NCBI GenBank assembly: GCA_963733095.1
Contig: CAVTBV010000013.1
Coordinates: forward strand, 288,001-352,000
Source of the DNA: Candidatus Bathyarchaeota archaeon
Lineage (GTDB): Archaea; Thermoproteota; Bathyarchaeia; Bathyarchaeales; Bathycorpusculaceae
Length of the DNA stretch: 64,000 bases
Reading direction: 5' to 3'
Shown here: positions 27,940 through 45,188 of the stretch, piece after piece
Layout of the letters: every line of letters begins with the position of its first letter
Position numbering within the stretch: position 1 is the first letter of the stretch
The notes under the pieces: generated by a model
What the model was told of the DNA's origin: nothing
What the model saw: the letters and a program-made list of their open reading frames with translations, nothing else
The model's database searches: none
Made by a program: the position numbers and the translations under genes

Positions 27940-28071
27940 ATAACGCTAAGGGCGATAGATACGTTGAAAAAAGTCTGTAGACCTTTGGAAGTTGGCTTTG
28001 AAAGCGTTAAGCAAGTAGAAAGCATTAAGATATTGATTAGCCAAAAGAATAATGGAAAGAAAAACGAGTAA
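27940..28071 (+). pseudogene. possible decayed C-terminus of a tyrosine integrase
   Basis: TLKKVCRPLEVGFESVKQVESIKIL resembles the GFEFV...IYRKRK tail of the integrase relic at 58989-59270. Confidence 0.35.
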
Positions 28072-28104
28072 AGTACCTTAGAATAGTCAAGTTTTCAGAG
28101 AAAA

Positions 28105-28120
28105 ATGTATATCAAGGTAT
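28105..28120 (+). repeat. attL core ATGTATATCAAGGTAT
   Basis: Exact match to 42072-42087; ends 62 bp before the integrase ATG. Confidence 0.8.
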
Positions 28121-28182
28121 AAGTAAGCTTCAACTTACTAAAATACCAAAACTTAAATAGTTAAAAAACATCTATTGAATAC

Positions 28183-29532: not shown

Positions 29533-29564
29533 ACCATGAAACGCAAACCCAAACTAAAAAACAG

Positions 29565-29996
29565 CTAACTTTTATTTTCCATGTTTTTCAGAATTTCTTT
29601 TAATGTTTGCCTAAGATCCGTTGTTTGAAGAATCATTTCAATTGCTTGTTGTTTGTTTTGTAAATTAGTAAGCTTTTTGCGGCCCGTTTCAGTTACTTGA
29701 TAAACAGGCTTGTTTGTTTCTTTGTTAATTGCTTTTTCAATTATGTCTTCTTTCATCAGTTCTTTGATGTAGCGCAAAAGCGTTTGTCGTGCGATTCGAT
29801 TTCCAGAAAACACAACTTTTCCACAGTCGACGCAAACAAGTTCTCTCGTATCTTTGTCTACAATGATATGTGAAGAATTGCATATTGGGCATGGACTTTT
29901 GAAAGTTGTTGGTCCAACAAATTGTCTTTCAAGTTCGCTCCAACTTGCCTTTTTCTTTTCAACGATGAAAGATGCTATTTCAAGATCATCAACCAT
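29565..29996 (-). CDS. winged-helix regulator with inserted TFIIB-type zinc ribbon
   Basis: ASWSELE..[CPICNSSHIIVDKDTRELVCVDCG]..ARQTLLRYIKEL...VYQVTETG. Confidence 0.8.
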   Translation of the reverse strand: MVDDLEIASFIVEKKKASWSELERQFVGPTTFKSPCPICNSSHIIVDKDTRELVCVDCGKVVFSGNRIARQTLLRYIKELMKEDIIEKAINKETNKPVYQVTETGRKKLTNLQNKQQAIEMILQTTDLRQTLKEILKNMENKS

Positions 29997-29999
29997 TTT

Positions 30000-30065
30000 A
30001 GTCTACTCCGTTAGACTTTACTCTGTCACATAAGACTTATTAATGTTGTTATCTACTATAGTAGA
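30000..30065. promoter_or_regulatory. divergent promoter with palindromes AGTCTA-N6-TAGACT (30000-30017) and TCTACTATAGTAGA (30052-30065)
   Basis: Inverted repeats between the wHTH regulator and the replication operon. Confidence 0.5.
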
Positions 30066-30203
30066 GTACACTCTAAAGATGCAGATAAACTCGTCCGTGG
30101 ATTATTCGAGACCAATGAAAAATCACCCAAACAAAAGCACGAAGAAACACCATCAAAACCACCGTTAAAAAGAGCCAAGTCAGAGCCTCTTGAAATTGAG
30201 TGT

Positions 30204-30482
30204 TTGCAGGAAAAAACCTACAAGGTTGTCCGAAAGGACAAAGAACAACAGGAGAACAAACCAGAAATGGAACCAGAATACACATTTAACTCAGATTCTC
30301 AATCACAAAGTAAACCCCTTGAAAAACAACCTTATGCTGCATTTGTAGTAAAAGGCGACCCTGAAGAAATAGCTAAACTAAAAGAACACATACTTGAAGA
30401 AACAACCCTTCGCCTAATTTACCAACATAGGGACAGCCGATACCTCAAAGTTTCCCCAGCTACCGAAAAAGACAATTTCTAA
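30204..30482 (+). CDS. hypothetical protein upstream of the replication gene
   Basis: 92-aa ORF co-oriented with and 24 bp before rep. Confidence 0.65.
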   Translation: MQEKTYKVVRKDKEQQENKPEMEPEYTFNSDSQSQSKPLEKQPYAAFVVKGDPEEIAKLKEHILEETTLRLIYQHRDSRYLKVSPATEKDNF

Positions 30483-30506
30483 TCAGACTTTCAGGAACCG
30501 CAAACC

Positions 30507-33350
30507 ATGACCCAAACAGAGCAAATACAGCCAATCATAACCAACAGCACAGCCACAACAAACCTAAACGAGCAACAAAGAATTTTAACACGGCGACTAC
30601 AGGAAGCTGGTGTTTCAACTAAATGTTTCTTGAAAACTGGTTATCAAGGTTGCGACGTTGAAGGCGACAAGAAAGCCTTTGAAAAAGAATGGCCGAACAA
30701 ACTTTACGGACCCGAAGACTTGGAAACTTATCCAAGATGGGGAATCTGTGGGAGATCTCCCTTAGTACCTATCGATTCAGACGACCCAGTAATTTATGAT
30801 GTGTTAAGCCGTGTTCTCCCAGAAACATTTGAAGTCACCAGCCCACGCCGAGGACTACCACACAAATACTTTATCGTTGAAGGACCTCAAGTACCTAACA
30901 AGAAACTACATTACCCAGAAATCTTTGACGAAAAAGGAAACCTAAAAGACTTAGGCGAAATCAGAGCAAACAATCAGTATTTAGTGGCACCCGGCACAAC
31001 CATAAGATATATTGACAAGCAAACAGGCGAACAAAAAACTGGAATGTACACAATAACAAAAGACGTTCCCATTGCAAGAATGACATACCACGACTTCATG
31101 ACAGCGATAAAAACATACATCACCGAAGCCAACGGCAGCACAACACAGACCATAACACAGAAAGAAATGACGGAAGGCGTAACAGAAGGTGCAAGGCATA
31201 CAAAAGCCGTGAGTTACGCTGGAAAGCTAGTCCACCGCTTAAAATTTGACTATGAAACAGCACTAATTCACCTAAAAACATGGAACAACAGCTTATGTAA
31301 ACCACCATTACCCGATGAAGAAATAACACGAATACTCAAAGATGTTTACGGCTATGCAGCAAAAGAAAAAGGTGTATCCTACGAGGAAGCGTTAAAAGGT
31401 GAAAACGAACAAAGCTTTTCAGAACAAATACTACAAATAGAAGCCGAAGCAACAGCCACAATAAAAGAAGATTCGGTCACTTTAGACCATATTAACGACA
31501 TAGAAAACCCAGAATATGCAGGAAAACCCATCATAGTTGAAGCCGTTATCTCAAGTAACAGCTTAAGTTATACAATACCCTCAGAAGTTGAAGCCATAAT
31601 CAAAGAGGAAGACACCGATGAAACTCGAGAAGAAAACAAAAGCATCAAAATAAACGATCCGCTAAACTTGAATTTTATAACAGTTACAACCGACCAACAG
31701 AAACGACAACTTAGAAAAATGTTCAAGGACAAAGCATTTGCACTAAACATAACGAAATATCGAGCTGCCTACATGGTCCGCATAAGACCACAAGTACAAA
31801 CTCTAACACAGAAAAACGGAAAAACCATTGATGACAAAGACAGAGAATACAAACATTTAGATATTCTCATAGTAAGTGACAAACCGTTAGCCTTCCAATC
31901 AAGTACCCGAATAAAACTTACTGCATTACCTCTTCCACACCCAAAAACACAACGAACAACTCTGCTTGCTTACAAAGTATCTTTTCCAGAATCAACAGAA
32001 AAATTCAGCACTGAAAAACTTGATTGCTTGAAATCAAAGTTCGAAGGCAAAACAGTAAAAGAACGCTGGAACTGGATACTTGACAACACTGAATTATACA
32101 CTCAAATCATTGGCAGACGCAACATAGCCGCGGAAACATTTCTAATAAGCTTCACTCCAACAACTAACATTGAATTATACGGCAAACTCGGCCATGGCTG
32201 GGGATTAGGCGACATAATTGGCGACACAACCACTGGCAAAAGCGAAACAGTAAAAAAAATATTAGCTCTACTTTCTGCAGGCATGTTCATTAGCGCGGAA
32301 ACTGCGAGCATAACAGGATTAACTGGCACAGCAACACAAATGGAAAATGGCACTTGGTTCGTTGACTGGGGCTTTTTACCACTCATGGACCGGAAACTTT
32401 TAGCGATGGATGGATGCCACAAAATAAGCCCCAGTGATTGGGCGCGTACAGCAGAGGCAGAACGCGAAGGTAAATTAGACATAAACAAAGCTGCAAAAGC
32501 CATAGCACCAGCCCGAACCAGACAAATAAAAATTTACAATGCCGTAGACAAAGAAGCATATGGGTTTCCAACCAAACCATTAAGTGAATTCCTTTATCCA
32601 GCTCAAGCATTACAAACTGTGGCAGATCAAACAACCATAGCACGTCGAGACATCGCTGTCTTCGTAAACAGTAGAGACGTCACAGCCGAACAAGTCAACC
32701 AAAAACCAACAACTCAACCAGAACCAGAACTTACAATATTAAGCGAATGTCTACGATGGGCATGGAGCAACACGGCAAAAATAACATTCACTGACGAAGC
32801 CTTAACTCATCTGCTTTCAAAATCTACAGAAATGTACAACACTTTCTATTATGCGCCAATTCCACTCGTTTCAATCGACATGAAATTTAAACTTGCACGA
32901 CTTAGCATCTCAGCGGCTTATGCTACATTATCAACCAACGATTACACAGACCTAATAGTGACAAAGGAACACGTTGAATTAGTCAGTGATATTCTCATAG
33001 ATGAGTACAGCAAAGCAGGATTAAACATGTTAGCTCAAACACAGAAATTCAACAAAATAACAGTTGAAGACGTGCAAACACTCATAACAAAAATTGAGAC
33101 AGCTATTCCCAAAGAACCTATAGAACAAACTAAAATCATTGAAATCCTAACCTTCATACTACATGCTGGAAGAGTCACACAGGACCAAATCAAAACCTGT
33201 TTTGAACTAACAGAGAAAAGCCAACTTAGACCGTTAATGGCGACACTGCAAACATTAGACTTAGTTAAAATGAACAGAGGATACTACGCAACCACAAAAC
33301 TCATAGAAGCCTACAAAGCAACAGAGAATTTTGCGTCCTTGCGTTCTTGA
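30507..33350 (+). CDS. primase-polymerase (primpol + PriCT) fused to MCM-like AAA+ helicase
   Basis: WGICG..LVPIDSD, TSPRRGLPHKYF, GEIRANNQYLVAPG (primpol); EGARH...WNNSLCKPPLPDEE (PriCT); GDTTTGKS, ASITGLTGTA..WFVDWGFL..MD, EREGKLDINKA (MCM-like); C-terminal wHTH. Confidence 0.85.
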   Translation: MTQTEQIQPIITNSTATTNLNEQQRILTRRLQEAGVSTKCFLKTGYQGCDVEGDKKAFEKEWPNKLYGPEDLETYPRWGICGRSPLVPIDSDDPVIYDVLSRVLPETFEVTSPRRGLPHKYFIVEGPQVPNKKLHYPEIFDEKGNLKDLGEIRANNQYLVAPGTTIRYIDKQTGEQKTGMYTITKDVPIARMTYHDFMTAIKTYITEANGSTTQTITQKEMTEGVTEGARHTKAVSYAGKLVHRLKFDYETALIHLKTWNNSLCKPPLPDEEITRILKDVYGYAAKEKGVSYEEALKGENEQSFSEQILQIEAEATATIKEDSVTLDHINDIENPEYAGKPIIVEAVISSNSLSYTIPSEVEAIIKEEDTDETREENKSIKINDPLNLNFITVTTDQQKRQLRKMFKDKAFALNITKYRAAYMVRIRPQVQTLTQKNGKTIDDKDREYKHLDILIVSDKPLAFQSSTRIKLTALPLPHPKTQRTTLLAYKVSFPESTEKFSTEKLDCLKSKFEGKTVKERWNWILDNTELYTQIIGRRNIAAETFLISFTPTTNIELYGKLGHGWGLGDIIGDTTTGKSETVKKILALLSAGMFISAETASITGLTGTATQMENGTWFVDWGFLPLMDRKLLAMDGCHKISPSDWARTAEAEREGKLDINKAAKAIAPARTRQIKIYNAVDKEAYGFPTKPLSEFLYPAQALQTVADQTTIARRDIAVFVNSRDVTAEQVNQKPTTQPEPELTILSECLRWAWSNTAKITFTDEALTHLLSKSTEMYNTFYYAPIPLVSIDMKFKLARLSISAAYATLSTNDYTDLIVTKEHVELVSDILIDEYSKAGLNMLAQTQKFNKITVEDVQTLITKIETAIPKEPIEQTKIIEILTFILHAGRVTQDQIKTCFELTEKSQLRPLMATLQTLDLVKMNRGYYATTKLIEAYKATENFASLRS

Positions 33351-33900
33351 CACGTCAAAAAAGAACCCCTATACAAAAAATCCTAACAGTGACTGAAAAA
33401 CAAGCAATAAAACCTTATTGAAAAAGAAAAAGTTCCAGATATAGTTTCTATTCAGAAAAATAAAGAGGGGGGTTTCAATTCTGAGGCGGGCAAAGACGGC
33501 ACAAACGGCAAAAATAAAAAACAAAGATATTGTTCTGAAGAATGTATCAATTTCGATAAGTCTTCTTGTAAGAATAGAAGCGGTCACTGGGGAGACCTAA
33601 ACATGAAATCATTATTACCGTTGAATTGTGTTGGTTTCGAAGCGCTTAATCTAGGCGCCTAACTATTTTTATCTTTTCAATGCCTTGTCTTTTTTAAGGC
33701 TGTAGACGCTAACAAACGTTAAGTTTTCAATAGTTTTCATTTTTTTATGCTACAAATATGGCATTTTTGAAAGTTTATTAAACTTCACTTTTTACCGACA
33801 AAAGCTGACAAAAACTGACACCTACAGAAAAAACGCCACATAATGCTACAGTTTTAGGTTTTTGATTGGTTGTTGTTTGCTCTGTTTGTTGCAGAATAAA
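33325..33900. other. candidate replication origin (short direct and inverted repeats after rep)
   Basis: TTTGCGTCCTTGCGTTCTTG with imperfect inverted partner CAAAGACGGCACAAACGGCAAAA; CCGACAAAA-GCTGACAAAA-ACTGACA iteron-like run near 33796-33820; AT-rich. Confidence 0.4.
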
Positions 33901-34029
33901 ACCAAATTGATTAAGGAAAACTGAAAGAAATTGCAATAATTTGCAACTTTGAGAGGTATAGAAATTGACTGAAGCAAACAAGCCCCGGAAGAAATCTGCA
34001 AGTTTTAAAGTGCAGCGTCACGCCAACGA

Positions 34030-34257
34030 TTGATTGCGCTCTATAATACTGTTAACCGTTTTAGTGTTGGGAAAGCAGCTGAAAGCCTCGGGGTTAGCCG
34101 CTGGTCCGTTGCCCGTGACTTGTCTTTTTTACGCGAGCATTCATTGTTAAGTCCCAAACGGAATCAAACAGTGCCTTACATAGTTGTTGAGTCTGGAGCC
34201 GAGTTTATGCAGCGATTCAACGCAGCACATCAAAGTAACAGTGGAAAGAAAGTTTAG
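34030..34257 (+). CDS. small HTH DNA-binding protein
   Basis: SVGKAAESLGVSRWSVARDLSFL. Confidence 0.75.
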   Translation: MIALYNTVNRFSVGKAAESLGVSRWSVARDLSFLREHSLLSPKRNQTVPYIVVESGAEFMQRFNAAHQSNSGKKV

Positions 34258-34321
34258 AGGATAAAACAAAAGAAGCGAATGTGGGGAGAGGGAAATATGC
34301 AAAAATTCAAAGTGTTCAACT

Positions 34322-34699
34322 ATGACCACCAAAACACAGCAAAACACAACCAATCAAGGAATCCAAAACCAAAAACCACAATATGTAATCTATACAGGCT
34401 CGCAAGAATTTAACTGTCACTTCCATCTATGTAGACGGCGTGAAATTCCATTTTTAGCCGTAAGCAGAAGGGGCGATATATACAGCGTTGAGTTTGATTT
34501 AATCACGTCTGAATCTCTTTTAAATGCCTTCGGATATGAAGACCTTTTAGCTTTTAGGGATGATTTGTTTGAGCGTAAGCTGTGTAGTGATGCTTTGACG
34601 AGTAGAGGCGTCGGCGTGTTTAAGGTTAAGAGACAATGTGAAGCTGAAGTGATTGAGAGACTTTGGCAAATAATAACATCAAATCTTGGGGTTGCTTAA
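34322..34699 (+). CDS. hypothetical protein
   Basis: 125-aa ORF co-oriented with the HTH gene. Confidence 0.6.
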   Translation: MTTKTQQNTTNQGIQNQKPQYVIYTGSQEFNCHFHLCRRREIPFLAVSRRGDIYSVEFDLITSESLLNAFGYEDLLAFRDDLFERKLCSDALTSRGVGVFKVKRQCEAEVIERLWQIITSNLGVA

Positions 34700-34925
34700 T
34701 TCGTCTCTTAAGGTTACTACATACAACATCCTTCTATCTTTTTGAAACAGTGAAGGCTAAGGCTCGAGATAGAGTTAGTAAATACTTAGCTCAGTTGTCA
34801 GAGTGAGAATAAGAAAATTCAACTCTTTTTTTTACAGTCAATTCAATAAAGCAACAAGTTTTCTCAATTTTAGTTAAAACCGAGAGATAACGAGGGAGCT
34901 GTTTGAGGGATAACAAGTTTGCTGA

Positions 34926-35537
34926 TTGTTGGGGTTGGTTATGTTAACCTATTCACTAGCAGTTTTTATATTGTTACTCATCGCTATTTTGTTACTGAAA
35001 AAGAGAAGAAAAGGGATACCTTTGGAAAGGGAAGATAGGATTTTAACATATGTGGGGTTGATTAGCGCAATAATTCTGGGATTTCTTCAGGCAATCTTTC
35101 AAGTTAATCCATCAATCTTGGGACCATATACGCAAACTTTTTCCTGGATTTTATTCTTATCAATGTTTGTCATCATTGCCGGAATCATCGCGTTATATTT
35201 TAAAAATAAGGGTATTACTGCTAAGGATGTGGAAAAAACAGATTTTTATTCTCCAATACATGCGATGATTGTAAAAGTAAATATAGAAACACCTCGCAAA
35301 CAAGCTCTAGCGTTCAGCGGAATTGGAAAGTGGGTTAACGTGAAACAGTTAAGAATAGACTATCAAAACGTATCTTCAGCCTTTACTCAACACGCAACCA
35401 AGTTTAAAGATGAAGATTTGACAAAGTGGGATGAAATAGAGAAACAAATTAAAGCTTATTCAAACGGCGGCGGTTTCTACATTAACAAAGATGTCCAGAA
35501 ATGGTTTGATGATTTAGAAACCAGATATAATCACTAA
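34926..35537 (+). CDS. three-TM membrane protein with soluble C-terminal domain
   Basis: Three hydrophobic segments. Confidence 0.7.
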   Translation: MLGLVMLTYSLAVFILLLIAILLLKKRRKGIPLEREDRILTYVGLISAIILGFLQAIFQVNPSILGPYTQTFSWILFLSMFVIIAGIIALYFKNKGITAKDVEKTDFYSPIHAMIVKVNIETPRKQALAFSGIGKWVNVKQLRIDYQNVSSAFTQHATKFKDEDLTKWDEIEKQIKAYSNGGGFYINKDVQKWFDDLETRYNH

Positions 35538-35621
35538 GCCTCGCGTTTGGAGTTACTCAGTTCTGGGATGTCCAAGAGAATAGCCGTTTGAAGAGTTAAG
35601 TTGGTTATATTAAAATAAAAT

Positions 35622-36083
35622 TTAGGGAAGTTGTTTTCCGCAGGAAGAACAAAACTTCACATCTGTATTTGCTAACCCTTTCCCACAGAAAGAGCAATAT
35701 CTCGGCGCATTTGAAAACGCTTGTAATGTACTCCATAACCGCTCCATGGCACTCCAACCTTCACGTCTAGGTATTCCAGCTCCTAGGGAAGTTGGAGAAA
35801 AATCTTGATCCTTCAATCCATATATTGTTATCCAACCTTCAGTTTTAGCCAATATGCCGTCTTCCGACGGTTGAAAAGAGACTTGGAAATATTTTGGCGC
35901 TGTTAGAAAGCCTACTCCCCAACGTCCTTTAATGTGGTTAGGGCTGCTTTCAGTTACGCTTACGCTATTTTTTGCGAACCAGTCTGTTACTGTACTTTTT
36001 ACTTCTTCTTTAGTTCTGCCTAAAATCAAAATATCTTTTCTTGTTCTATCCATCGCGACCCCTAAAAATGATATAGCAATCAA
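35622..36083 (-). CDS. protein with C-terminal zinc ribbon (likely start ~36053)
   Basis: YCSFCG...FCSSCG. Confidence 0.75.
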   Translation of the reverse strand: MIAISFLGVAMDRTRKDILILGRTKEEVKSTVTDWFAKNSVSVTESSPNHIKGRWGVGFLTAPKYFQVSFQPSEDGILAKTEGWITIYGLKDQDFSPTSLGAGIPRREGWSAMERLWSTLQAFSNAPRYCSFCGKGLANTDVKFCSSCGKQLP

Positions 36084-36113
36084 GCGCTTATAACATTATT
36101 TATCTCTCCATTA

Positions 36114-36275
36114 TTACTGGAGTTTGTCACCGCATAAGGGGCACTCTGAAGGCTCTTTCTTTTGAGTGTTAATTAATTTGTATGAACAGAAATAGCAGAA
36201 GGAAACTTGGCATTTAGGGCAAAAGCAAGAGCCCTCATCAATCATTTTTCCGCAAGTGCTACAAGACTTAATCAA
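36114..36275 (-). CDS. small protein with four CxxC motifs (RING/double-ribbon-like, 53 aa)
   Basis: Hand translation (M)IKSCSTCGKMIDEGSCFCPKCQVSFCYFCSYKLINTQKKEPSECPLCGDKLQ. Confidence 0.75.
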   Translation of the reverse strand: MIKSCSTCGKMIDEGSCFCPKCQVSFCYFCSYKLINTQKKEPSECPLCGDKLQ

Positions 36276-36618
36276 ATTGTGATCTATCGTTTTTAGGTTT
36301 GGATTGCTTTATAAAATTATTTATTGAAACTGAAAAATTTGTTACTGTAGAACAGGTTTTTTTATTCCTAGCAACCTTTGCATTATTTTTATTTTTCTTT
36401 TGGGTTATAATTGAAACCCAAAACAAGTTTGACCTTAAAAATCAATGTTTTAGGAGTTAGTGTCGAAATTCGATACAAGAAACGGTAAAGGCATGTCTGT
36501 TAATGACTGCCTCCTCTTTTTTTGTTCAATTATCCACCGGTTGATATTTCAACATAATAACCTGGTTATAACTCAGTGGGCGGTTGTTTTTTTACACCAC
36601 CATAAAACCTAAAGTTTT

Positions 36619-37140
36619 GTGAAACAAGCAGATTTTCGTCAAATCCGCAAACTCAAAAGAAAAGGCACCATAATAAATGGTGTCTCAGTTGACCGCGTAG
36701 AACATAATTTCAACCTTGTACTTTCACACCTAAGACAGGTTGGCACATATGAACGGACCCTCAAAAAACACAATGTTTTAGTTATTTACCAACTCGTGCG
36801 TCGCTGCCTTGAAAACTCAGAATCAGATAAGCTTGATTTAGCCGTTGAATTTGAGCATCTACACGACTTTGACAACACCGACGATTTCATAGATTATTTA
36901 GAGAAACAACATTCTATTTCTAAAACTTACAGAGACGCCGTTCTTAAAGACATGGCTTTAACCGAGCTTGAAGAACATGCAGACATTTTAAATAAAAAAA
37001 TAGTCAACAAACACGCTGTAGTGCTCGGAGAAAACGAGGTAGCTATCCCAGAAATTGACTATTATTATTTTAAGCGTAGAGATGCTCAACTGAAAAAGCT
37101 TGAAGTCGCCGCTTGTGGATGGCCGCTGAGTCTCTGTTAG
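36619..37140 (+). CDS. hypothetical protein
   Basis: 173-aa ORF, first of a four-gene run. Confidence 0.65.
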   Translation: MKQADFRQIRKLKRKGTIINGVSVDRVEHNFNLVLSHLRQVGTYERTLKKHNVLVIYQLVRRCLENSESDKLDLAVEFEHLHDFDNTDDFIDYLEKQHSISKTYRDAVLKDMALTELEEHADILNKKIVNKHAVVLGENEVAIPEIDYYYFKRRDAQLKKLEVAACGWPLSLC

Positions 37141-37165
37141 TATTTTCCAAACCCCTTGAGGACCC

Positions 37166-37594
37166 TTGCAAACATACCAAACCGTCTTAATCAGTTTTCA
37201 AAGCAGCCAAACCGTACCCGCCGGAACCATAAAGAAAAAGCGTAAAGGCCGCCCCTTCGAAATGTTCAGTGAGCAAGAACTAAAAGAAATCTTTGAAGGC
37301 ATATTAAGCGTTAACCAGGAAAAGCGGCGACAAGCCTTCAAGAGTTTTGGAAAAGTCAAAATAAGAAAAGCCATCAACATTTTTAAAACAGACTTTGGGA
37401 AGCAAGGAATTATTTTTAGAAAGGAATGTAGAATCCATAAGAGAGCTAAACTTTTTTACGGTTGGAGCGGCTACTCGGAGGGCGTTCGGGTTAAATGTTT
37501 ATTTGAAGGCTGTACGTCTTTGAATTCTCATTTTGAACCAATGATTTACGGCGCCACTAACGAATTTAATGAAGAGTCAGAGTTTTACGGATAA
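37166..37594 (+). CDS. hypothetical basic protein with possible C/H metal site
   Basis: KKKRKGRP...; CRIH...CLFEGC. Confidence 0.6.
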   Translation: MQTYQTVLISFQSSQTVPAGTIKKKRKGRPFEMFSEQELKEIFEGILSVNQEKRRQAFKSFGKVKIRKAINIFKTDFGKQGIIFRKECRIHKRAKLFYGWSGYSEGVRVKCLFEGCTSLNSHFEPMIYGATNEFNEESEFYG

Positions 37595-37649
37595 TGAATA
37601 ACTCTTTTTTAGACATATTAGCTGTAGCGGATAATCACCAAATTTATTA

Positions 37650-37901
37650 GTGAAACCAATGAGCCAAAATGATGTATATTGCGAATCTCGAAAAACAGCC
37701 CTAATTCAGCAAATCAACAAACTCACGGGAGAAAACGAATCCTACTCAGACTGGACCCTAAGCCAACTTGACGTTTTCCACGATAAACTTGTAACAAGAT
37801 ACCAAACGTTTCAAGAAAAGCATGAAGCTGAACTCAAAGGCGAAAAGTTGACGGTTGGCAACAGTCTCCTAGGCTTAAAAATGCATGAGCTGCCAAAATA
37901 A
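37650..37901 (+). CDS. hypothetical protein
   Basis: TAATG overlap with the next ORF. Confidence 0.65.
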   Translation: MKPMSQNDVYCESRKTALIQQINKLTGENESYSDWTLSQLDVFHDKLVTRYQTFQEKHEAELKGEKLTVGNSLLGLKMHELPK

Positions 37902-38236
37902 TGACTCAAAAAGTAGGTGAAAACAAAACTATGTCACAAACACAAGAAATCGAGCTGCCAACCATACAGACCGGGACAGGATTCAGTTCAGCCCCAGACT
38001 ATACGCTACAATTCAAGAACGCGGAATCTTTAGAGTTATGGGCTAAACAAGTAAAAGCTATTCCTTTTGCTAAAAGCCATTTCTTAGTTGAAGGCCATAT
38101 TTGCCTCTGTCAAATTGAGCAGCCAGAACCGCCAGCAAAAGAAATACAGAAGAAGCCCTCTGTCAGCGCCTCGGTTGGAAAATCTCAATCGTTTTACTAC
38201 GACCCAGCTTCAGGCAGTATGAAGAAGTACTTTTAA
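37901..38236 (+). CDS. hypothetical protein
   Basis: Translationally coupled to the preceding ORF; T-rich tract follows. Confidence 0.65.
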   Translation: MTQKVGENKTMSQTQEIELPTIQTGTGFSSAPDYTLQFKNAESLELWAKQVKAIPFAKSHFLVEGHICLCQIEQPEPPAKEIQKKPSVSASVGKSQSFYYDPASGSMKKYF

Positions 38237-38559
38237 ACTTCAAACTTTTTTCTTTTTTTGTTATCCTTTATTTTACAATCAAATGTACTTTTTACATAAC
38301 AATAAATTTTAGTGTGGACTCGGCGCCGAAACCAAGAGAGAGGGTGACTTGGGGTAGAAAAAATAAACGCCGAGTCACGCACCAATAAATTCGGAGTTTT
38401 GAAAAAGGATGCCAAACCTCGACAATACCCTAAAAAAGAAAAAGAAAAGTGTTAAACACTTGCTAATTTCTGCAATGCTTCTTCAGCCCATGAAAAAAAC
38501 CAAAAAAAGAAATACGATAAAAATTTAAAATTCAAGTAACCAAGTTTGCTGTTTTTGAA

Positions 38560-38952
38560 TCATTTAGTTATTTCTTTGCTTCTGCTTATAGCCCTAAGGA
38601 TTAATTCATTCTGTCGAATCATTATCTTGTTTTGGTCAATAATTGCTTTCAATCCAGAAGCTAAGATTTGGTCGGTTGAATTTAAAGTCAATATACTTCC
38701 TATATACATCCACTTTGTGCCAGCCTCATGTGATCGAAGATTAGTCATATCCTCAACAATCTTTTTCTTTACTTCTTCATCACTCATTTCGTCCGAAATG
38801 AGGAGTTCTACTACCTTCTTCATTGGTTGTTGTTCTATCGGTGGCTCCTCTTTGATGCCTTTCACGTGTACTTTATCATGATGGTCAAACATTTCATCTT
38901 CAGAACTAAATAGTTTACCACATTCAGGACAATATACCTCTAATTTTCCCAT
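38560..38952 (-). CDS. C2H2 zinc-finger protein
   Basis: CPECGKLFSSEDEMFDHHDKVH; C-terminal LKAIIDQNKIMIRQNELIL. Confidence 0.8.
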   Translation of the reverse strand: MGKLEVYCPECGKLFSSEDEMFDHHDKVHVKGIKEEPPIEQQPMKKVVELLISDEMSDEEVKKKIVEDMTNLRSHEAGTKWMYIGSILTLNSTDQILASGLKAIIDQNKIMIRQNELILRAISRSKEITK

Positions 38953-39037
38953 GAAGTCCCTCTCACTTTAGATGCAATGGTTCTATTTCTCTTTTTGTGC
39001 TAACTATTGATTAACCTTAAAAGGCAAATCAGCTCTA

Positions 39038-39211
39038 ATGGCAAGCATGCAGGCGAGAGCTAAAAAACGTAAAATCAGCGTAACACTAGACGAAAACTTA
39101 ATCGCGTGGCTAGATCAACAAACAAAAACCTATGTTTTTCACAGTCGTAGCGAAGGAATAGAAAGAAGTGTTTTAGCACTCAAACGAGAAATGGAAAAAG
39201 AGGAAACTTAG
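39038..39211 (+). CDS. ribbon-helix-helix (CopG-like) regulator, 57 aa
   Basis: Hand translation ..KKRKISVTLDENLIAWLDQQTKTYVFHSRSEGIERSV.. Confidence 0.8.
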   Translation: MASMQARAKKRKISVTLDENLIAWLDQQTKTYVFHSRSEGIERSVLALKREMEKEET

Positions 39212-39236
39212 TTGTTTTCCGTTTTGTTTTGGCAGT

Positions 39237-40037
39237 TTAGTATAGTTTGAACCATATTCCGCCTGTGCCATCATAGTTTCTTCCGAACGTCAATAGTGGG
39301 TGGGTGTCAGTAAGAGAAACTTGGTAAGCTTCCCAGCCTTCATGTGATGCACCTGGATATAGCGAAGTTGATAATGCGGGGTCTGGAGGAACAATTGAGT
39401 GATAATCGTATTCTACTCCGTTTTCTGATATGGCATCGAAGTATACTGGAGATACATTGTATACGGTGTCTGCGGTTGGTCCTGTGAGGTATTCAAATTG
39501 TATTTTGACAAGGATGTATTCGTAACCTGAGTTTGGTGCAGAGTTGAACATGTTGGCTGCATGGATGCGGTTCCATGCTTCTGCGCCTCTCACGGTTTCT
39601 AGAAGTGTTATTCTGGCGCTGTATTTTCCGCTTAACCAATCATATTGGATAGTTAAGGGTGTTGCTGCTGGCGCGGGGTTAGATCGTGCATATCCTGTCG
39701 GTATGGAAGTTGAGCTTGGAGTGGGTGACGGTGAAGCTGTAGGTGTTGGAGATGGAGTTGGTGAAGGGGTTGGTGAGGGTGTAGGTGAAGCTGTTGGCAT
39801 TGGAGTAGATGTGGGTTCAACATTATCTGTTGGGTCCGATGTTGGCATAATCTCGGGCTGGATGGACTGGGTAATCGTGGGTGAAACAGTGGGATTAGAT
39901 GTTGGCGTGGGAGTTGGCGTAGGGCTTGACATATAGCTTGAGTCTAATATGTTTGGGAGTAAATATGCTCCAGCTCCTGAGGATATTGCGAGTATGACAA
40001 TTATTACAATTATTGATAGAGTTTTTCGAGTTTTCAT
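39237..40037 (-). CDS. membrane-anchored surface protein with P/T/S linker and DUF4352-like Ig domain
   Basis: N-terminal TM, PTPS repeats, ARSNPAP...RGAEAW..I..AN.FN..P..GYEYILVK...LYPGASHEGW. Confidence 0.8.
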   Translation of the reverse strand: MKTRKTLSIIVIIVILAISSGAGAYLLPNILDSSYMSSPTPTPTPTSNPTVSPTITQSIQPEIMPTSDPTDNVEPTSTPMPTASPTPSPTPSPTPSPTPTASPSPTPSSTSIPTGYARSNPAPAATPLTIQYDWLSGKYSARITLLETVRGAEAWNRIHAANMFNSAPNSGYEYILVKIQFEYLTGPTADTVYNVSPVYFDAISENGVEYDYHSIVPPDPALSTSLYPGASHEGWEAYQVSLTDTHPLLTFGRNYDGTGGIWFKLY

Positions 40038-40309
40038 TCACTTTCATCTTATTTTTTTGACTAATGCTCTATTTTTGGTTTATCCTATCGGGTTTATGCT
40101 ATCTTGACGTTTGAATTAATTGCGGATGATAACATTTTATCTGTCAGCATTCGTTAATCGTTTTATTTTTCGCCGTGTGACTTTGCAGATTGCGTCGAAG
40201 GCTGCCAAGACCCTTTGACAGAACGTTTGCTGTGATATTTTGCATCATTATTATTTCATCGAGAGACATCGTTGACGTTTGAAAGAACAAGTTCAATTTG
40301 CTTGCAATA

Positions 40310-40489
40310 CTATTTGGTGCTTGCTTTAGCTATAAATTGTTTAAGAAGCTCTTGGTCGTCTGAGATTTGTTTTGGGTCCTGTTTTCTGGCCCTGCAAAGC
40401 AAAGTGCGGAATCCTTCAAGTTTTCTCCCAGTTTCTAAATAATCTTTTATGATTTGTCGTTCGCTGGGTGTCAAGATATAATCGCGCAT
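40310..40489 (-). CDS. small hypothetical protein, possible repressor (59 aa)
   Basis: Hand translation MRDYILTPSERQIIKDYLETGRKLEGFRTLLCRARK...; AAGGAG SD upstream. Confidence 0.7.
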   Translation of the reverse strand: MRDYILTPSERQIIKDYLETGRKLEGFRTLLCRARKQDPKQISDDQELLKQFIAKASTK

Positions 40490-40505
40490 TTTAGTGTCTC
40501 CTTTT

Positions 40506-40613
40506 GTTACTATGATTGAATCAGTATTTTAAATGTTTTCTTATTTGCTACAGCACAATTGCTACAACAATAGTAACGCTTAAATAATTGCTGTGTGTTA
40601 CAGTGATTGTAGC
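40506..40613. promoter_or_regulatory. three 17-bp operator-like sites GYTAC-N7-GTARC in a divergent promoter
   Basis: 40506-40522 (degenerate), 40561-40577 and 40597-40613, interleaved with two TATA-like boxes. Confidence 0.6.
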
Positions 40614-40626
40614 AAGGTGAAATAAG

Positions 40627-40770
40627 GTGGAAGCAACAACTCAAACCAAAAAAATGTTTTATTGCCACACCGCAAAAAAAGAGATCCTCGAAGAATGGTG
40701 CCCACAAGCCTGCTATATCTGCACTCAAGCAAACCGTGAAGGAAACGAAACCTACCATTGGAGCGGCTAA
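40627..40770 (+). CDS. small Cys-rich protein (47 aa)
   Basis: GTG start after AGGTGA SD; FYCHT...WCPQACYIC. Confidence 0.5.
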   Translation: MEATTQTKKMFYCHTAKKEILEEWCPQACYICTQANREGNETYHWSG

Positions 40771-40772
40771 AA

Positions 40773-40907
40773 ATGCCCTCAGTTTTTATTTGTCCAAAAT
40801 GTGGCCGCACAAACAGCTACATCCGCGACAACCGCCGAATTGAACATTGCAGCGAATGCGGCACACCCCAAACATCCAGCCCAATCACCTCAGGAAGGAT
40901 GTTTTGA
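40773..40907 (+). CDS. small zinc-ribbon protein (44 aa)
   Basis: MPSVFICPKCGRTNSYIRDNRRIEHCSECG. Confidence 0.65.
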   Translation: MPSVFICPKCGRTNSYIRDNRRIEHCSECGTPQTSSPITSGRMF

Positions 40908-41105
40908 AATGAAGTGTACGCTTGAATGGTTAACCGGCGAGAAGACCTGGCGAACATCCAAGTGCTAGTTGTGGTCTTTGTGGTTGCAGAGATATATTTC
41001 AAGAGTGAATCATTTTTAAAAATTAGTGTTAAAAAACTTTTTAAGTTATCAAGTAAAACGATGTTATAACGGTGCTATTATGAGCAAACTTTAGGAGGGA
41101 AAACT

Positions 41106-41351
41106 TTGAAAAAATCCACATTCAGGCGATATAGAGTAGCCATCATTTTTTTATTTGCTCTAGCAGCGGTTTCAATCTATATTCTTGTCTCAATTAGCGG
41201 TAAACTACCACAACCAATGGATCTAACGATTGAAGGTCCTAATGGTGTATTCACCGTGACAGCTACCGGAATTGCAGAACAGATTATAGCGCCTATTCTT
41301 GGAATCTGTACAGGTGTCTCTTTCATAATAGCCACTATAAGAAAAAAGTAA
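41106..41351 (+). CDS. small two-TM protein
   Basis: AGGAGG SD; two hydrophobic helices; basic termini. Confidence 0.65.
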   Translation: MKKSTFRRYRVAIIFLFALAAVSIYILVSISGKLPQPMDLTIEGPNGVFTVTATGIAEQIIAPILGICTGVSFIIATIRKK

Positions 41352-41431
41352 ACAAGAGATTACAAAATTAACTTCCTTTTTTTTGAGTAACAATCTATCT
41401 TAGCCAAAATAAGTGAGAAAACTTAGAATTA

Positions 41432-41761
41432 TTAAGTTGCATAATCGATTTTTCTGTTTCTTTCAGCCTCTTGTTGCTGCTTAAGTATTTCATTACGGTT
41501 CAACCTTAAATCATAAAAGTACACTGGAAGCCCAACTGAAAATAATAATGTGCCGGACATTAAAACAATTAAATTTTTGAAGGTGCCAAAAAAGATATAA
41601 TTCATAGCACCATAAGGCAAAAAGAAACAACCAATTGTGAACATAATTAACGCTAAAATTCCTATTTCGTCTATTCTGTCTTTTCCCAACTTCAAAAACA
41701 AAGTTATCCCTGTATTGTTGAGGGTGCTTCTATTATGAACTATTTTTGGCTCAAACAACAA
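41432..41761 (-). CDS. small two-TM protein
   Basis: Two hydrophobic helices; start uncertain. Confidence 0.5.
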   Translation of the reverse strand: MLFEPKIVHNRSTLNNTGITLFLKLGKDRIDEIGILALIMFTIGCFFLPYGAMNYIFFGTFKNLIVLMSGTLLFSVGLPVYFYDLRLNRNEILKQQQEAERNRKIDYAT

Positions 41762-41781
41762 ACGGCAGCTGTAATGTAGAG

Positions 41782-41851
41782 AGTTGAGGGGTTGCAGCTG
41801 TCCAATCAGAACTCCCTTTTCCCCCCTAAATACTTGTGCAACCCCTCAACT
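41782..41851. repeat. 15-bp perfect inverted repeat with 40-nt loop
   Basis: AGTTGAGGGGTTGCA (41782-41796) / TGCAACCCCTCAACT (41837-41851). Confidence 0.85.
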
Positions 41852-42071
41852 TAACCAATAATCAGCCAAGTTAGCATAGAAGCTTTTAGCCAAAATCACT
41901 ATTCGCGAACTTTTCCGAGTAATTATTACAGAAATAAGGGGTTAATTTATTAGAATGACAACCTTTCACTTCTTAAAGTAAATAGGTGAGTAATTGAGAA
42001 TACAAATGCAAACTGTGTACTTGCTATCTCCCATGACAAAAAAGTATACAAGCTTTAGTAAGCTCGGAGCT

Positions 42072-42087
42072 ATGTATATCAAGGTAT
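42072..42087 (+). repeat. attR core ATGTATATCAAGGTAT, overlapping the putative por TATA box
   Basis: Exact match to 28105-28120; ends 40 bp before the porG start. Confidence 0.8.
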
Positions 42088-42127
42088 TCGCCATTTTACT
42101 GACGAAAGACTTAGTGAAGGGATTGCT

Positions 42128-42691
42128 TTGAAAAGTATGGTAGAGTTTAGATGGCATGGTAGAGGTGGACAAGGCGCTTGGACAGCCAGCGAACTTTTGG
42201 CAAGAACAGCTCTTGACGAGGGCAAGTACATTCAATCTTTCCCAGAGTTCGGGCCCGAACGAATGGGTGCGCCAGTGACTGCATTTACAAGAATCAGCAC
42301 TGAACCAATACGGTTACATTGTGCAATCTATGATCCAGATGTTGTGGTAGTTTTAGACAGCACACTGCTAAAAACTGTTCCAGTAACCGCTGGATTAAAT
42401 CGCGACGAAGATTTATTAATCATTAATTCCAGTGAGAATCCAGCGGTTTTGAAAGAAAACCTGCGAGTAACCAAGGGCAAAGTTTGGACGGTTCCAGCAA
42501 CCGAAATTGCTCTTAGGATTTTAGGTGCTCCAATCACAAACACAGCGCTGTTAGGCGTCGTTGCCAAAGCAACTGGAATCGTGTCTTTAGAGGGCATAGA
42601 GAAAACTCTGAAAGGACGTTTCAGACGTGATTTAGCTGAGAAAAACTTTGCAGTTATACAAGAAGCGTACCAAGAGGCAAAAGTTGAATGA
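42128..42691 (+). CDS. porG: pyruvate/2-ketoisovalerate:ferredoxin oxidoreductase gamma subunit
   Basis: EFRWHGRGGQG, FPEFGPERMGAPV. Confidence 0.95.
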   Translation: MKSMVEFRWHGRGGQGAWTASELLARTALDEGKYIQSFPEFGPERMGAPVTAFTRISTEPIRLHCAIYDPDVVVVLDSTLLKTVPVTAGLNRDEDLLIINSSENPAVLKENLRVTKGKVWTVPATEIALRILGAPITNTALLGVVAKATGIVSLEGIEKTLKGRFRRDLAEKNFAVIQEAYQEAKVE

Positions 42692-42972
42692 GTAGTAAAG
42701 AAAAAACTTGGAAAGAAATCTCCATTGCAGGAGTCTGCCCTAAATCAAGCGTTGGATTTATGACTGGCGACTGGAAAACTTACATGCCTGTGCGTGACCT
42801 CGAAAAATGCACAGTTTGCTTAACTTGCACTATGTTTTGTCCAGAAGGCGCAATCGACTGGAGACCTGAACTTGGAAAAATCGATTTTAACTTCAGCTTC
42901 TGCAAAGGCTGCGGAATATGCGCCAACGAATGCCCGACTAAAGCAATAACGATGAAAATACCTGAGGAATAA
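42688..42972 (+). CDS. porD: POR delta subunit (2x[4Fe-4S])
   Basis: TGDWKTYMP, CTVCLTCTMFCP, CKGCGICANECP. Confidence 0.95.
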   Translation: MSSKEKTWKEISIAGVCPKSSVGFMTGDWKTYMPVRDLEKCTVCLTCTMFCPEGAIDWRPELGKIDFNFSFCKGCGICANECPTKAITMKIPEE

Positions 42973-42976
42973 GAAA

Positions 42977-44212
42977 ATGGCAAACACCCAAGTTAAACAA
43001 GAAACCATGGGATTGAACGGCGATGAAGCAGTTGCGTTAGCTGCCAAACAATGTAACGTTGATGTGGTAGCCGCTTACCCAATTACACCTCAAACAATAA
43101 TAGTGGAAAAATTCAGTGAATATGTCGCAAACGGAGAAGTCCAAACAGAGTTTGTCTGCACCGAATCCGAACACAGCGCCCTGACTGCATGCATAGCGGC
43201 CGGTGCAACAGGTGCACGAACCTTCACCGCAAGTGCTTCAGCAGGATTAGCCTTGATGCACGAAATGCTCTTCGTCACTTCAGGCTCTCGAGTGCCCGTT
43301 GTGATGGCAGTTGCAAACCGTGCTTTATCTTCCCCGCTAAACATTCACGGTGACCAATCAGACAGCATGGCTGCACGGGATAGTGGATGGATACAGGTTT
43401 ACGTCGAAAATGCGCAGGAAGCCTACGACTCCATTATTCAAGCCTTTAAAATCGCGGAGGATTTTGGCGTATCTTTGCCGTTGATTGTAGGCTTAGACGG
43501 CTTCACTCTTAGTCATTCGCTTGAAAAAGTAAGTGTTCTTCCCGACGAGTTAGTTACCCAGTTTGTCGGTGAACGGCAACTGCCAAATGTCCTAACTCAC
43601 GAAGGCAAAACTGCACCATTCAAGTTAGACCCCGCCAACCCCATGACCATGGGGCCAGTAGCTTTCCAAAACTACTATTTTGAGTTCAAACGTCAACAGG
43701 AAGAAGGCATGAAAAACGCGTTGAAGAGGATACAGGAAGTCAACAGTGAATACGCCAAAATCAGCGGAAGAAGCTACGGAAACGGCTTAATAGATGGCTA
43801 CAAAATCTCTGACGCAGAACTCATTGTAGTTTGCGTTGGTTCAACATCAGGAACGCTTAAGGTAATCGTTGATGAACTACGCTCTGAAGGTGTAAAAGCG
43901 GGACTTTTGCGGTTACGTACCTTCAGACCCCTTCCAGTTGAAGAATTGCAGAATGCATTAAAGAATTCTAAAGCTGTTGCAGTCATGGACAAAAGCATGA
44001 GTTTCGGAGGTTATGGTGGCGCAGTTTTTCATGAAGTTCGCCATGCACTCTACGATACAAAGCCGCATCCGCCAATCATAAACTACATCTACGGTTTAGG
44101 CGGAAGAGACCATAGCCCCAGTGAACTTCGCAAAGTATTCAATGACCTGATGTCCATCATCAAAACCGGGAACGTAGATACCCAAGTGCGCTATTTGGGA
44201 TTGAGGGAGTAA
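42977..44212 (+). CDS. porA: POR alpha subunit
   Basis: AAYPITPQT, ESEHSA, GLALMHE, NRALSSPLNIHGDQSD. Confidence 0.95.
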   Translation: MANTQVKQETMGLNGDEAVALAAKQCNVDVVAAYPITPQTIIVEKFSEYVANGEVQTEFVCTESEHSALTACIAAGATGARTFTASASAGLALMHEMLFVTSGSRVPVVMAVANRALSSPLNIHGDQSDSMAARDSGWIQVYVENAQEAYDSIIQAFKIAEDFGVSLPLIVGLDGFTLSHSLEKVSVLPDELVTQFVGERQLPNVLTHEGKTAPFKLDPANPMTMGPVAFQNYYFEFKRQQEEGMKNALKRIQEVNSEYAKISGRSYGNGLIDGYKISDAELIVVCVGSTSGTLKVIVDELRSEGVKAGLLRLRTFRPLPVEELQNALKNSKAVAVMDKSMSFGGYGGAVFHEVRHALYDTKPHPPIINYIYGLGGRDHSPSELRKVFNDLMSIIKTGNVDTQVRYLGLRE

Positions 44213-44225
44213 GGAGGAAAACAAG

Positions 44226-45188
44226 TTGACTACACAAGAATGGAGATTTACAGCAAAGGACATCGCTTCAAAACCTGACCTGTTCTTATCAGGACATCGT
44301 GCCTGTGCAGGCTGTGGACCCGCAGCTGCCCTGCGTTTGATAATGAAGGCTACCCGTGGACCTACAATCGTAACTCAAGCAACAGGTTGCATGGAGGTAG
44401 TTTCTTCAATCTACCCCTACACCTCTTGGGCTGTACCGTGGTTACATACGGCTTTCGAGAACGCTGCCGCAAACGCTTCAGGTATCGACGCCGCCCTAAA
44501 AGCCCTGCGTAGGAAAGGTCAAATCAAAGAACATATCGACATTATTGCGTTTGCAGGCGATGGCGGAACCTACGACATTGGCTTGCAAGCATTGTCGGGC
44601 GCGGTGGAACGTGGACATGACTTTCTCTTTATACTCTATGACAACGAAGGCTACATGAACACTGGCATCCAACGTAGCAGTTCAACCCCCCTCGGCGCCG
44701 CAACAACCACGACCCCTGCAGGCTCCGTGATTCCAGGCAAACTGGAGAAGAAAAAACCGATAACTGAAATCATGCTCGCCCACGAAATGGAATACGTCGC
44801 AACCGCAACCCCCTACTACTGGAAAGACATGCTCACCAAAGTCCGCAAAGGACTAGAAGTCGAAGGCCCCGCATTCCTTCACGTGTTTGCTCCTTGCCCC
44901 CGTGGCTGGAGAAGCGAACCCGCAAAAACAATGGAATACAGCAAACTAGCGGTTGAGTCATGTGTGTTTCCAATCTGGGAAGCCGTCAACGGCAAACGAA
45001 CCCTCTCAATACCCAGCAAACTCATCGCATTAGCACCGCAGAAAAAAAAACCTGTCAAAGCATACCTTGAAGGACAAGGCAGATTCCGCCACCTCTTCAC
45101 ACCAAAGAACTCACAAATAATCGACCAAATCCAACAAACCACTGACGAACGCTGGCAACGTCTCCTCAAAAAATGCGAGTTCCCCTAA
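44226..45188 (+). CDS. porB: POR beta subunit (TPP-binding)
   Basis: GHRACAGCG, GDGGTYDIG...YDNEGYMNTGIQRS, APCPRGW. Confidence 0.95.
   Translation: MTTQEWRFTAKDIASKPDLFLSGHRACAGCGPAAALRLIMKATRGPTIVTQATGCMEVVSSIYPYTSWAVPWLHTAFENAAANASGIDAALKALRRKGQIKEHIDIIAFAGDGGTYDIGLQALSGAVERGHDFLFILYDNEGYMNTGIQRSSSTPLGAATTTTPAGSVIPGKLEKKKPITEIMLAHEMEYVATATPYYWKDMLTKVRKGLEVEGPAFLHVFAPCPRGWRSEPAKTMEYSKLAVESCVFPIWEAVNGKRTLSIPSKLIALAPQKKKPVKAYLEGQGRFRHLFTPKNSQIIDQIQQTTDERWQRLLKKCEFP

Follow-up and report, generated by a model that had tools for sequence, protein, structure and literature searches.

An archaeal integrative element recombined at a conserved, promoter-like box upstream of the por operon

An integrative element in front of por

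We analysed 64,000 nucleotides (nt) of a Candidatus Bathyarchaeota genome (contig CAVTBV010000013.1; this whole stretch is termed the window), in which a 13,967-bp integrative element lies directly upstream of the porG–porD–porA–porB operon (42137–45188, plus strand). The operon encodes a four-subunit 2-oxoacid:ferredoxin oxidoreductase of the pyruvate/2-ketoisovalerate family (Pfam POR, Fer4, POR_N/PFOR_II and TPP_enzyme_C; TIGR02175, 220 bits; PorA_Arch, 499.5 bits, under its cutoff of 550). It is the only close four-subunit copy in the genome, which holds one alpha-subunit paralogue at 25% identity. The conserved start codon of porG is the ATG at 42137; the TTG at 42128 reads CTG in two relatives. 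The left host neighbour, on the minus strand, encodes a winged helix–turn–helix (wHTH) chromatin protein of the Sso10a family (27360–27743; NF053610, 66.9 bits against a cutoff of 60), and in the empty site this gene is divergent from por. The element is bounded by two copies of a 16-bp sequence, ATGTATATCAAGGTAT (the core), at 28105–28120 (the left attachment site, attL) and 42072–42087 (the right attachment site, attR); coordinates of attachment sequences and boxes refer to the plus strand. The bases flanking each copy differ, so that exactly 16 bp are repeated.

The core has two matches in the window even when up to two mismatches are allowed, against 0.04 expected, and exactly two copies in the whole 2,835,923-bp assembly. 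Exact direct repeats of 15 bp or more number ten in the window, and several are 16-mers that plainly arose by chance. The match by itself therefore proves little, as an earlier note on this DNA had cautioned, and comparative evidence is decisive. We placed Logan contigs of four sequencing runs on window positions 26000–44000, to which run X4 contributed none. In run X1, a wetland metagenome, a 691-nt contig (record 4) joins 27739–28104 directly to 42072–42396 with no mismatches and no gaps. This contig omits exactly 13,967 bases, and 16 letters fit on either side of the joint; because the joint is exact, an element-free chromosome with identical flanks exists. X1 gave no coverage of the interior of the element, and interior pieces in X2 were 100% identical to the window. 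The locus thus has the hallmarks of a site-specifically integrated element: direct repeats bound it, an integrase gene lies beside one of them, and related DNA has the precise empty site. Taken together, these data identify a 13,967-bp integrative element, a plasmid or provirus, that recombined into the chromosome through its own tyrosine integrase using the 16-bp segment of identity; its body spans 28121–42071 and one core copy makes up the total. No tRNA genes were found in the window, in agreement with the earlier note, which had placed a non-tRNA attachment site at these borders. A second, low-depth X1 contig joins 28120 to 42126 with a further stretch between them; its shorter side is only 22 letters, and it is probably the empty site of another strain with a diverged leader.

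In the empty site, the core is adjoined by the host sequence GAGAAAA (28098–28104), an A/G-rich stretch that resembles a BRE, the element that transcription factor B recognises. This stretch precedes the core at attL, where the integrase-side arm of the element follows. At attR, the core is preceded by the right arm of the element, which ends in CGGAGCT (42065–42071), and is followed by the por leader and porG. The replacement of GAGAAAA by CGGAGCT at attR had been pointed out in the earlier note, and the core, both of these strings, AAAAAAGTATACAAG and AGTAAGCT all stand where that note had placed them.

The integrase is a 449-amino-acid (aa) tyrosine recombinase encoded by an intact gene (28183–29532, plus strand) and matches PF00589 over residues 167–320 (40.1 bits against a cutoff of 27.1) and the PHROG 216 integrase (E = 2.3e-11). 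Tyrosine recombinases share the catalytic motif R ... [H/K]xxR ... H/W ... Y. R169, K289-R290-F291-R292, H315 and Y323 are invariant in an alignment of five sequences at 49–69% identity, and the pattern suggests that R169, K289/R290/R292, H315 and Y323 are the catalytic residues. A search of the Protein Data Bank (PDB) by sequence gave nothing meaningful (best match Csy4, E = 0.96), and no relative was found among the viral contigs searched. We rejected the idea that the protein is the chromosome-dimer resolvase XerA, because the XerA profile (NF040815) gives 38 bits against a curated cutoff of 220 and the gene lies inside a mobile element. A 'suicidal' integrase of the Sulfolobus spindle-shaped virus (SSV) type was rejected as well: the open reading frame (ORF) at 28183–29532 is unsplit and the core ends about 62–63 nt before its ATG. 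A candidate integrase promoter, ATACCAAAACTTAAAT (28143–28158), has a TATA-like part that starts about 30 nt before the ATG at 28183, a distance that suggests a leaderless mRNA. It is the top site of the region in both promoter matrices described below (9.6 bits, at the 99.98th percentile, in the tRNA-derived matrix and 12.6 bits in the mRNA-derived matrix), and an equivalent ..CTTAAAT.. box lies upstream of integrase homologues.

Two further products of the element were recognised. One is a candidate transcription regulator of 143 aa (29565–29996, minus strand) with a TFIIB-type zinc ribbon (PF08271, 31.9 bits against a cutoff of 29) and a wHTH region (HTH_45, 20.1 bits, under the cutoff); in an element that inserts at a BRE/TATA-like box, the presence of such a protein is intriguing. 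The other is a 947-aa fusion (30507–33350, plus strand) of a primase-polymerase, a PriCT domain and an MCM-like P-loop helicase (PF00493, PF08708 and PF09250; PHROG 18685, 10371 and 695). About 12 further ORFs had no family match in Pfam or PHROG, and the same scans recognised no virion genes in the element. Among the unmatched ORFs, that at 39237–40037 (minus strand, 266 aa) contains 12-nt periodic G/T-rich repeats, with seven copies of a 47-nt family at 39716–39918. Far from the element, the window carries a 90-bp exact direct repeat (7380–7469 and 10176–10265) with matches of 17–19 bp nearby, presumably between paralogous genes.

Related sites and elements at por and ileS

The genus set comprised 120 genomes, and we fetched 19 congeners by the 5′ end of por. 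Sixteen of them carry AG[A/C]AAAA(TG)TATAT[C/G]AAGG, that is AGAAAAATGTATAT[C/G]AAGG, upstream of porG and no element. The three exceptions are an element arm (L008), a contig that is too short (L020) and a tRNA (L022). In the last of these (G017:C79), the core box is absent, and the Shine–Dalgarno-like sequence of por follows about 45 nt after the end of a tRNA gene (anticodon loop CTGTTAA), so that here the region upstream of por was replaced by a different route. The left flank of the window element, CAGAGAAAA, together with the core fits the empty sites of the congeners; the attR flank, CGGAGCT plus core, does not. In an alignment of 17 rows (the 16 empty sites and the reconstructed empty form of the window genome, G000), AGAAAAATGTATAT[C/G]AAGG is the longest near-invariant stretch in the 200 bp upstream of por, and its AG[A/C]AAAA part is itself near-invariant. 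Other conserved pieces are a Shine–Dalgarno-like GAAGGGA/GGAGAAG and TTGAAAA just before the ATG. Most relatives have a further block, TTTTACATTAA, some 45 nt upstream of the core; G000, G003 and G015 lack it. Searching the 120 genomes with a 15-nt core and two mismatches gave no more matches than a reversed control.

A related element of 6,903 bp occupies the same por site in a second species (G048:C1). Its integrase is 82% identical to that of the window element and contains one in-frame TAG. Its attL reads ...TTTTACTAGAAAA followed by the core ATGTATATCGAGGTAT, and its attR reads TTTAGTAAGCTCAGAGCT followed by the core ATGTACATCAAGGTAT and porG. Positions 6 and 10 distinguish the two core copies, a pattern that fits strand exchange between these positions but may also stem from later mutation. 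The longest ORF of this integrase (L037, 4778–6121) is only 329 aa, and with the element at only 6.9 kb it looks like a decaying copy.

The non-coding right arm of the window element, about 160 bp long (41911–42071), is present in five of the 120 genomes (G000, G048, G011, G091 and G101), always directly upstream of the core and porG. It contains an A-rich/TATAC box, AAAAAAGTATACAAG (42038–42052), which lies 20–34 bp upstream of the core and scores 5.0 and 9.4 bits in the two matrices. The earlier note had described this sequence as a degenerate copy of the core. It proved to be a conserved feature of the element end: all seven related arms (the five genomic ones and those of the metagenome loci L061 and L113) have such a box, ending about 20 nt before the core, as AAATAAA[C/A]TATACGGG or AAAAA[A/G]ACTATACC in the other arms. 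The box may be a promoter or an accessory site of the integrase. Every one of the five genomic arms has a second TATA-like box, AGGGGTTAATTTATTA (41937–41952), to which TTAATTTATTAGAA of L113 is similar, and GGTTAATTTATTAGAA is common to the five genomic arms about 135 nt before the core. A search of 41400–42300 against Rfam returned only SNORD28 (23.3 bits against a gathering score of 50, E = 0.34), which we take as chance. The arm is unlikely to encode a small protein, because the ATG at 41946 runs for eight codons to a stop in both G000 and G091.

Motifs near the core recur at both ends of the element. The 8-mer AGTAAGCT is found in the right arm (42057–42064, 8–15 nt before the core) and again on the integrase side (28122–28129), where it is followed by an inverted CTTACT at 28135–28140. 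Four matches to this 8-mer against 2.24 expected, a number reached in 17 of 100 shuffles, are not significant alone. AGTAAG lies 10–15 nt before the core and the inverted CTTACT 15–20 nt after it; CTTAC(C/T) is found 11–14 nt after the core in G048, G094, G048:C3, L058 and L062, which include por-type elements and elements of the ileS type described below, and TTAGTAAG is conserved in the arms of G048, G011, G091 and G094. These AGTAAG/CTTACT sequences are candidate integrase binding sites, as the earlier note had suggested for the motif at both ends.

Three of the arm-bearing genomes (G011, G091 and G101) have the arm before the core and an intact porG and porD, with no integrase relative and no second core copy. 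No element genes were present within 20 kb upstream of these solo arms. In G011 the arm is preceded by genes of sugar metabolism. G091 and G101 share with G048 the same 487-aa left neighbour and keep the first ~150 bp of the G048 intergenic region, followed by about 90 bp of other sequence and the arm. With G048 included, porG and porD are intact behind four foreign arms, a finding compatible with long-term function of the arm–core–por arrangement. Two metagenome contigs of 2.5 and 1.4 kb (L061 and L113; integrases 77% and 74% identical) have arm-like sequence, a core (TGTATATCAAGGTAT), the integrase-side arm and the integrase in one piece, without the host AGAAAA; this arrangement may represent the free, unintegrated attP form. 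A degenerate arm-plus-core pattern gave no matches in the metagenome contigs.

Integrase relatives (E ≤ 1e-10) were detected in nine of the 119 other genus genomes. One of them (68% identical, full-length alignment) belongs to a 2,804-bp mini-element in G094:C3 that consists of the integrase and two small ORFs. The mini-element is flanked by an exact 16-bp repeat, TAATACTTTTATATAG, and its right (attR) copy ends 26 nt before the ATG of ileS, a 1,015-aa isoleucyl-tRNA-synthetase-like gene that we named by reading its sequence. The ileS locus of G000 is an empty site, with TGTTACTTTTATATAG and the same downstream sequence and no element, and G019 has the left flank, core and right flank of G094 in one piece. 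A TATA-like box stands at this position in 20 of 21 congeners; in the remaining one (G009), the contig ends there. The same ileS-type core precedes the integrase in G048:C3 and in the metagenome loci L058, L060 and L062. In the por type as in the ileS type, integrase and target gene share one orientation, and the core stays with the target gene. The ileS-type arm of G094 has TTTAATTATAC, analogous to the A-rich box of the por-type arms, and the motif TATAC(N5-6)TTAGTAAG after an A/T-rich run is common to por-type and ileS-type arms at unrelated loci. The arm motifs, since they recur in the ileS-type element, are features of the element family, not of the por locus. Taken together, promoter-core targeting looks like a trait of an integrase subfamily with por and ileS types.

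More distant relatives (50–53% identical; G014-type and G068-type) have only 12–14-bp repeats of doubtful meaning near them. The intact G014 integrase (53% identical) abuts the start of a gene resembling the major facilitator superfamily (MFS), and the G068 integrase follows the 3′ end of a gene; the G014 type would be a candidate third specificity directly at a gene start. On contig C7 of G000 (about 150,285–150,535), a degenerate 5′ fragment of a G014-type integrase adjoins the start of an MFS-like gene, with a junction as in G014. Our survey of integrase homologues covered 79 loci, 57 of which were inspected. GCTGTTTTCAACAAT recurs in the metagenome contigs L074–L118, whose integrases are about 50% identical: at least 14 loci have it, some 90 nt upstream of the integrase and preceded by unrelated sequence, and it may be the core of another clade. 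L073 instead has a tRNA 3′ end upstream. At 26 of the 57 inspected loci, some of them on contigs of 9–26 kb, less than 450 bp of contig precede the integrase start; as a candidate explanation, presence/absence polymorphism could have broken the assembly at attachment sites. Proteins of this integrase family are plentiful in environmental data: 166 of those scored reach E ≤ 1e-10, under no other names than 'integrase' or 'XerC/D'.

The nature of the core and the effect of integration

The core and the adjoining AGAAAA form the most conserved block upstream of por and are most likely the BRE/TATA core promoter of the operon, given their conservation, form and position and the analogy with the TATA-box site of ileS. 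Archaeal promoters combine an A-rich stretch with a TATA-like box, and this box lies about 26 nt upstream of the transcription start. At por, an A/G-rich AG[A/C]AAAA stands directly before an AT-rich (TG)TATAT[C/G], conserved and upstream of a start codon. The box extends from 72 to 49 nt ahead of the conserved ATG at 42137; the earlier note had rightly placed the core upstream of porG but had taken TTG 42128 as the start, giving a distance of 40 bp. With a TATA box about 26 nt upstream of the transcription start, the por leader would be about 35 nt long. We give a probability of about 0.6 to the reading as a whole, that is, that these integrases target promoter cores and that the expression of the target gene is preserved.

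Several observations weigh against this reading. We scored candidate boxes with a tRNA-derived matrix, built from the upstream regions of 32 tRNA genes of the genome (consensus ..GAAA-SS-TTTAWW, 44–56 nt before the mature 5′ end), and with an mRNA-derived matrix, re-trained on 1,464 crude gene upstream regions and self-reinforcing. In the tRNA-derived matrix, the host box reaches 2.0 bits and the attR form −1.7, with the 99th percentile of a background contig at 3.0. The left flank in G000 has higher-scoring matches at −48 and −67 from the core, unconserved in relatives, so the statement in the earlier note that the core contains the only TATA-like box was too strong. At 72 nt from the ATG, the start of the box lies outside the genome-wide peak of best motif matches (−60 to −40) and requires the leader of about 35 nt with its Shine–Dalgarno-like GAAGGGA. 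Moreover, por can be expressed otherwise, as in G017, which has a tRNA in place of the box; promoter targeting is seen for two specificities only, and one distant homologue is located near a tRNA 3′ end. The five arm-bearing genomes fall among empty ones in a por gene tree with weak support, which is too weak to tell several integrations from one old one. In the mRNA-derived matrix, the host box has 5.9 bits and the attR form −7.7, with a median best match of 6.9 per gene; that the host form exceeds the attR form in both matrices counts for the reading. Both matrices under-score the plainly canonical ileS TATA box and the mRNA-derived one is self-reinforced, so neither is a reliable judge.

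The alternative that survives best accepts the integration and denies the promoter: the 16-bp box would be the operator of a regulator or a leader element, used by the integrase because it is conserved, with por transcribed from elsewhere. The weak matrix score, below the 99th percentile, speaks for this, as do a distance to the ATG beyond the genome-wide mode and the second conserved block, TTTTACATTAA, upstream of the core in most relatives. That block is missing in three genomes that keep the box, however, and the A-rich stretch followed by TATAT has the form expected of an archaeal BRE/TATA. In the sister element, the core can hardly be taken for anything but a TATA box, and it lies 26 nt from the ileS ATG. 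We regard a non-promoter box as possible, if unlikely.

Recombination inside the core rebuilds the TATA-like box and all downstream sequence at attR. Only the upstream half, the BRE-like stretch and beyond, is exchanged for the conserved ~160-bp arm of the element, which brings its own A-rich/TATAC box 20–34 bp upstream of the core. If the core is the por promoter, transcription of por after integration would start from one of two sites, the rebuilt core, whose BRE side is now foreign, or the A-rich/TATAC box of the arm. At attL, the complete host box faces the integrase gene, alongside the candidate promoter of that gene. Like tRNA genes in the usual case, the core was probably targeted as a short sequence that is constant across the genus. 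On the sequence, integration thus appears to be expression-preserving and not an on/off switch, and a quantitative change in the expression of por or of the integrase is possible.

In a more elaborate proposal, recombination within the BRE/TATA cores of essential operons (por and ileS) is an evolved property of the subfamily, and integration would then bring about a reciprocal promoter swap. A host metabolic promoter would come to lie before the integrase, tying the integrase, and hence excision, to the por or ileS promoter, and the boxes of the arm, possibly together with the TFIIB-ribbon/wHTH protein, would drive the host operon. In phage lambda, sib, a 3′ RNA processing site that regulates int, is split from int by recombination at att. 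There, as here, the att site separates the two, so that int adjoins different regulatory sequence in the free and the integrated state. The lambda site acts in 3′ RNA processing, in contrast to the candidate 5′ promoter-like boxes of the window element, and the likeness is pure analogy. We hold the reciprocal swap to be a rather doubtful proposal. If it were true, regulation would run in both directions between an archaeal mobile element and central carbon metabolism.

The earlier note had proposed a metabolic switch, in which integration and excision alter por expression and so carbon metabolism. In its favour, the BRE-like AGAAAA becomes GGAGCT at attR, with a drop of 3.7 to 13.6 bits in the matrices, and forms with and without the element both occur in nature. 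A bacterial precedent is the HK022 prophage next to torS of Escherichia coli, in which a prophage promoter transcribes the host gene and up-regulation was measured, according to the available text (PMC6814406). As is proposed for por, the integrated element there supplies a promoter to an adjacent host gene; the difference, beyond the bacterial host, is that in the window element the att core itself is the presumed promoter element, a role assigned from sequence. The switch nevertheless fits the locus poorly. The core and leader are rebuilt intact, and silencing would be costly for an operon with no close second copy. Three species have fixed arm–core–por without the element and with intact porG and porD, and such copies cannot switch. 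The G048 integrase has a stop codon, nothing indicates regulated excision, and the metagenome forms represent presence/absence polymorphism. Nor does the sequence show the inactivation of the target that characterizes 'active lysogeny': the core, the leader and the ORFs are all restored, and an intact por follows the arm in G048, G011, G091 and G101. We therefore consider the switch improbable.

The solo arms in G011, G091 and G101 are better read as deletion remnants of the element, because the attL sites of G000 and G048 carry genus-typical host sequence, the X1 empty site has host-type sequence and the arm motifs are shared with the ileS-type element. The earlier note had treated arm sequence upstream of porG in relatives without the element as an outcome that would undo its proposal. 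Exactly such arm sequence is present in these three, which we read as remnants, and 16 of 19 sampled relatives have the box without an element. In the opposite view, the ~160-bp arm is ancestral to the host in some lineages and was taken up by the element through imprecise excision, which would make the three genomes true empty sites. Host genes do lie directly upstream of their arms, and the divergence of the arms (72–80% identity) is similar to that of por. Against this view, TATAC(N5-6)TTAGTAAG also occurs in the ileS-type arm at an unrelated locus, G091 and G101 have the genus-typical GTCAAC...TTTTACAT...TAGAAAA block replaced by the ~90 bp and the arm, and arm-like sequence is joined to the core and integrase in L061 and L113. 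An ancestral arm is accordingly very improbable. The weakest alternative, that the repeat is one of the chance AT-rich 16-mers of the window and the island's borders lie elsewhere, is already refuted by the exact X1 joint and is further opposed by the empty sites of 16 congeners and the second element with the same junctions.

Known integration systems and implications

The statement in the earlier note that most archaeal integrases target tRNA genes is correct, and intergenic and intragenic exceptions were already on record (PMC8371274, PMC6563490, in the text available to us). One example is the psiM100 prophage of Methanothermobacter wolfeii, which uses an AT-rich intergenic site (PMC8371274); it is a tailed virus and its site is not described as a promoter core in the available text, whereas the window element has no recognised virion genes. 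The nearest functional parallel is offered by the pTN3-like elements of Thermococcales, in which, as described there, a rebuilt tRNA gene is expressed from the integrase promoter (PMC8371274). Like the window element, they replace the promoter-proximal side of an essential host gene, and the rebuilt gene is expressed from upstream sequence supplied by the element. Compared by description, they differ in targeting the 5′ half of a tRNA gene and in having a split ('suicidal') integrase gene; the window element targets an upstream box of protein-coding operons, and its integrase ORF is intact with the core ~63 bp upstream. Integrated elements of Thaumarchaeota occupy tRNA genes in 39 of 68 cases, intergenic sites in 15 and the 3′ ends of protein genes in 14 (PMC6563490). 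That work, in the portion available, thus establishes non-tRNA targets and shows that integrative elements carrying an MCM or a primase are common; it describes no BRE/TATA core as an att site, and the word 'promoter' is absent from its main text. In the passages of the archaeal integrase literature covered by our search, we found no att core described as coinciding with a BRE/TATA promoter core; the 'TATA box' of SNJ2 is the integrase operon's own promoter. Site-specific integration is therefore known, and the promoter-core target class and its reuse by an integrase subfamily appear to be new.

If the box is the por promoter, the promoter cores of essential genes would serve mobile elements in the way that tRNA genes do, as genus-wide landing pads. 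The upstream halves of host promoters could then be derived from mobile elements and become fixed, as in the three solo-arm species, which would constitute a route of archaeal promoter turnover. Moreover, attB, attL, attR and attP would share one TATA box and vary on its BRE side alone, and would provide a natural test of BRE function in Bathyarchaeia.

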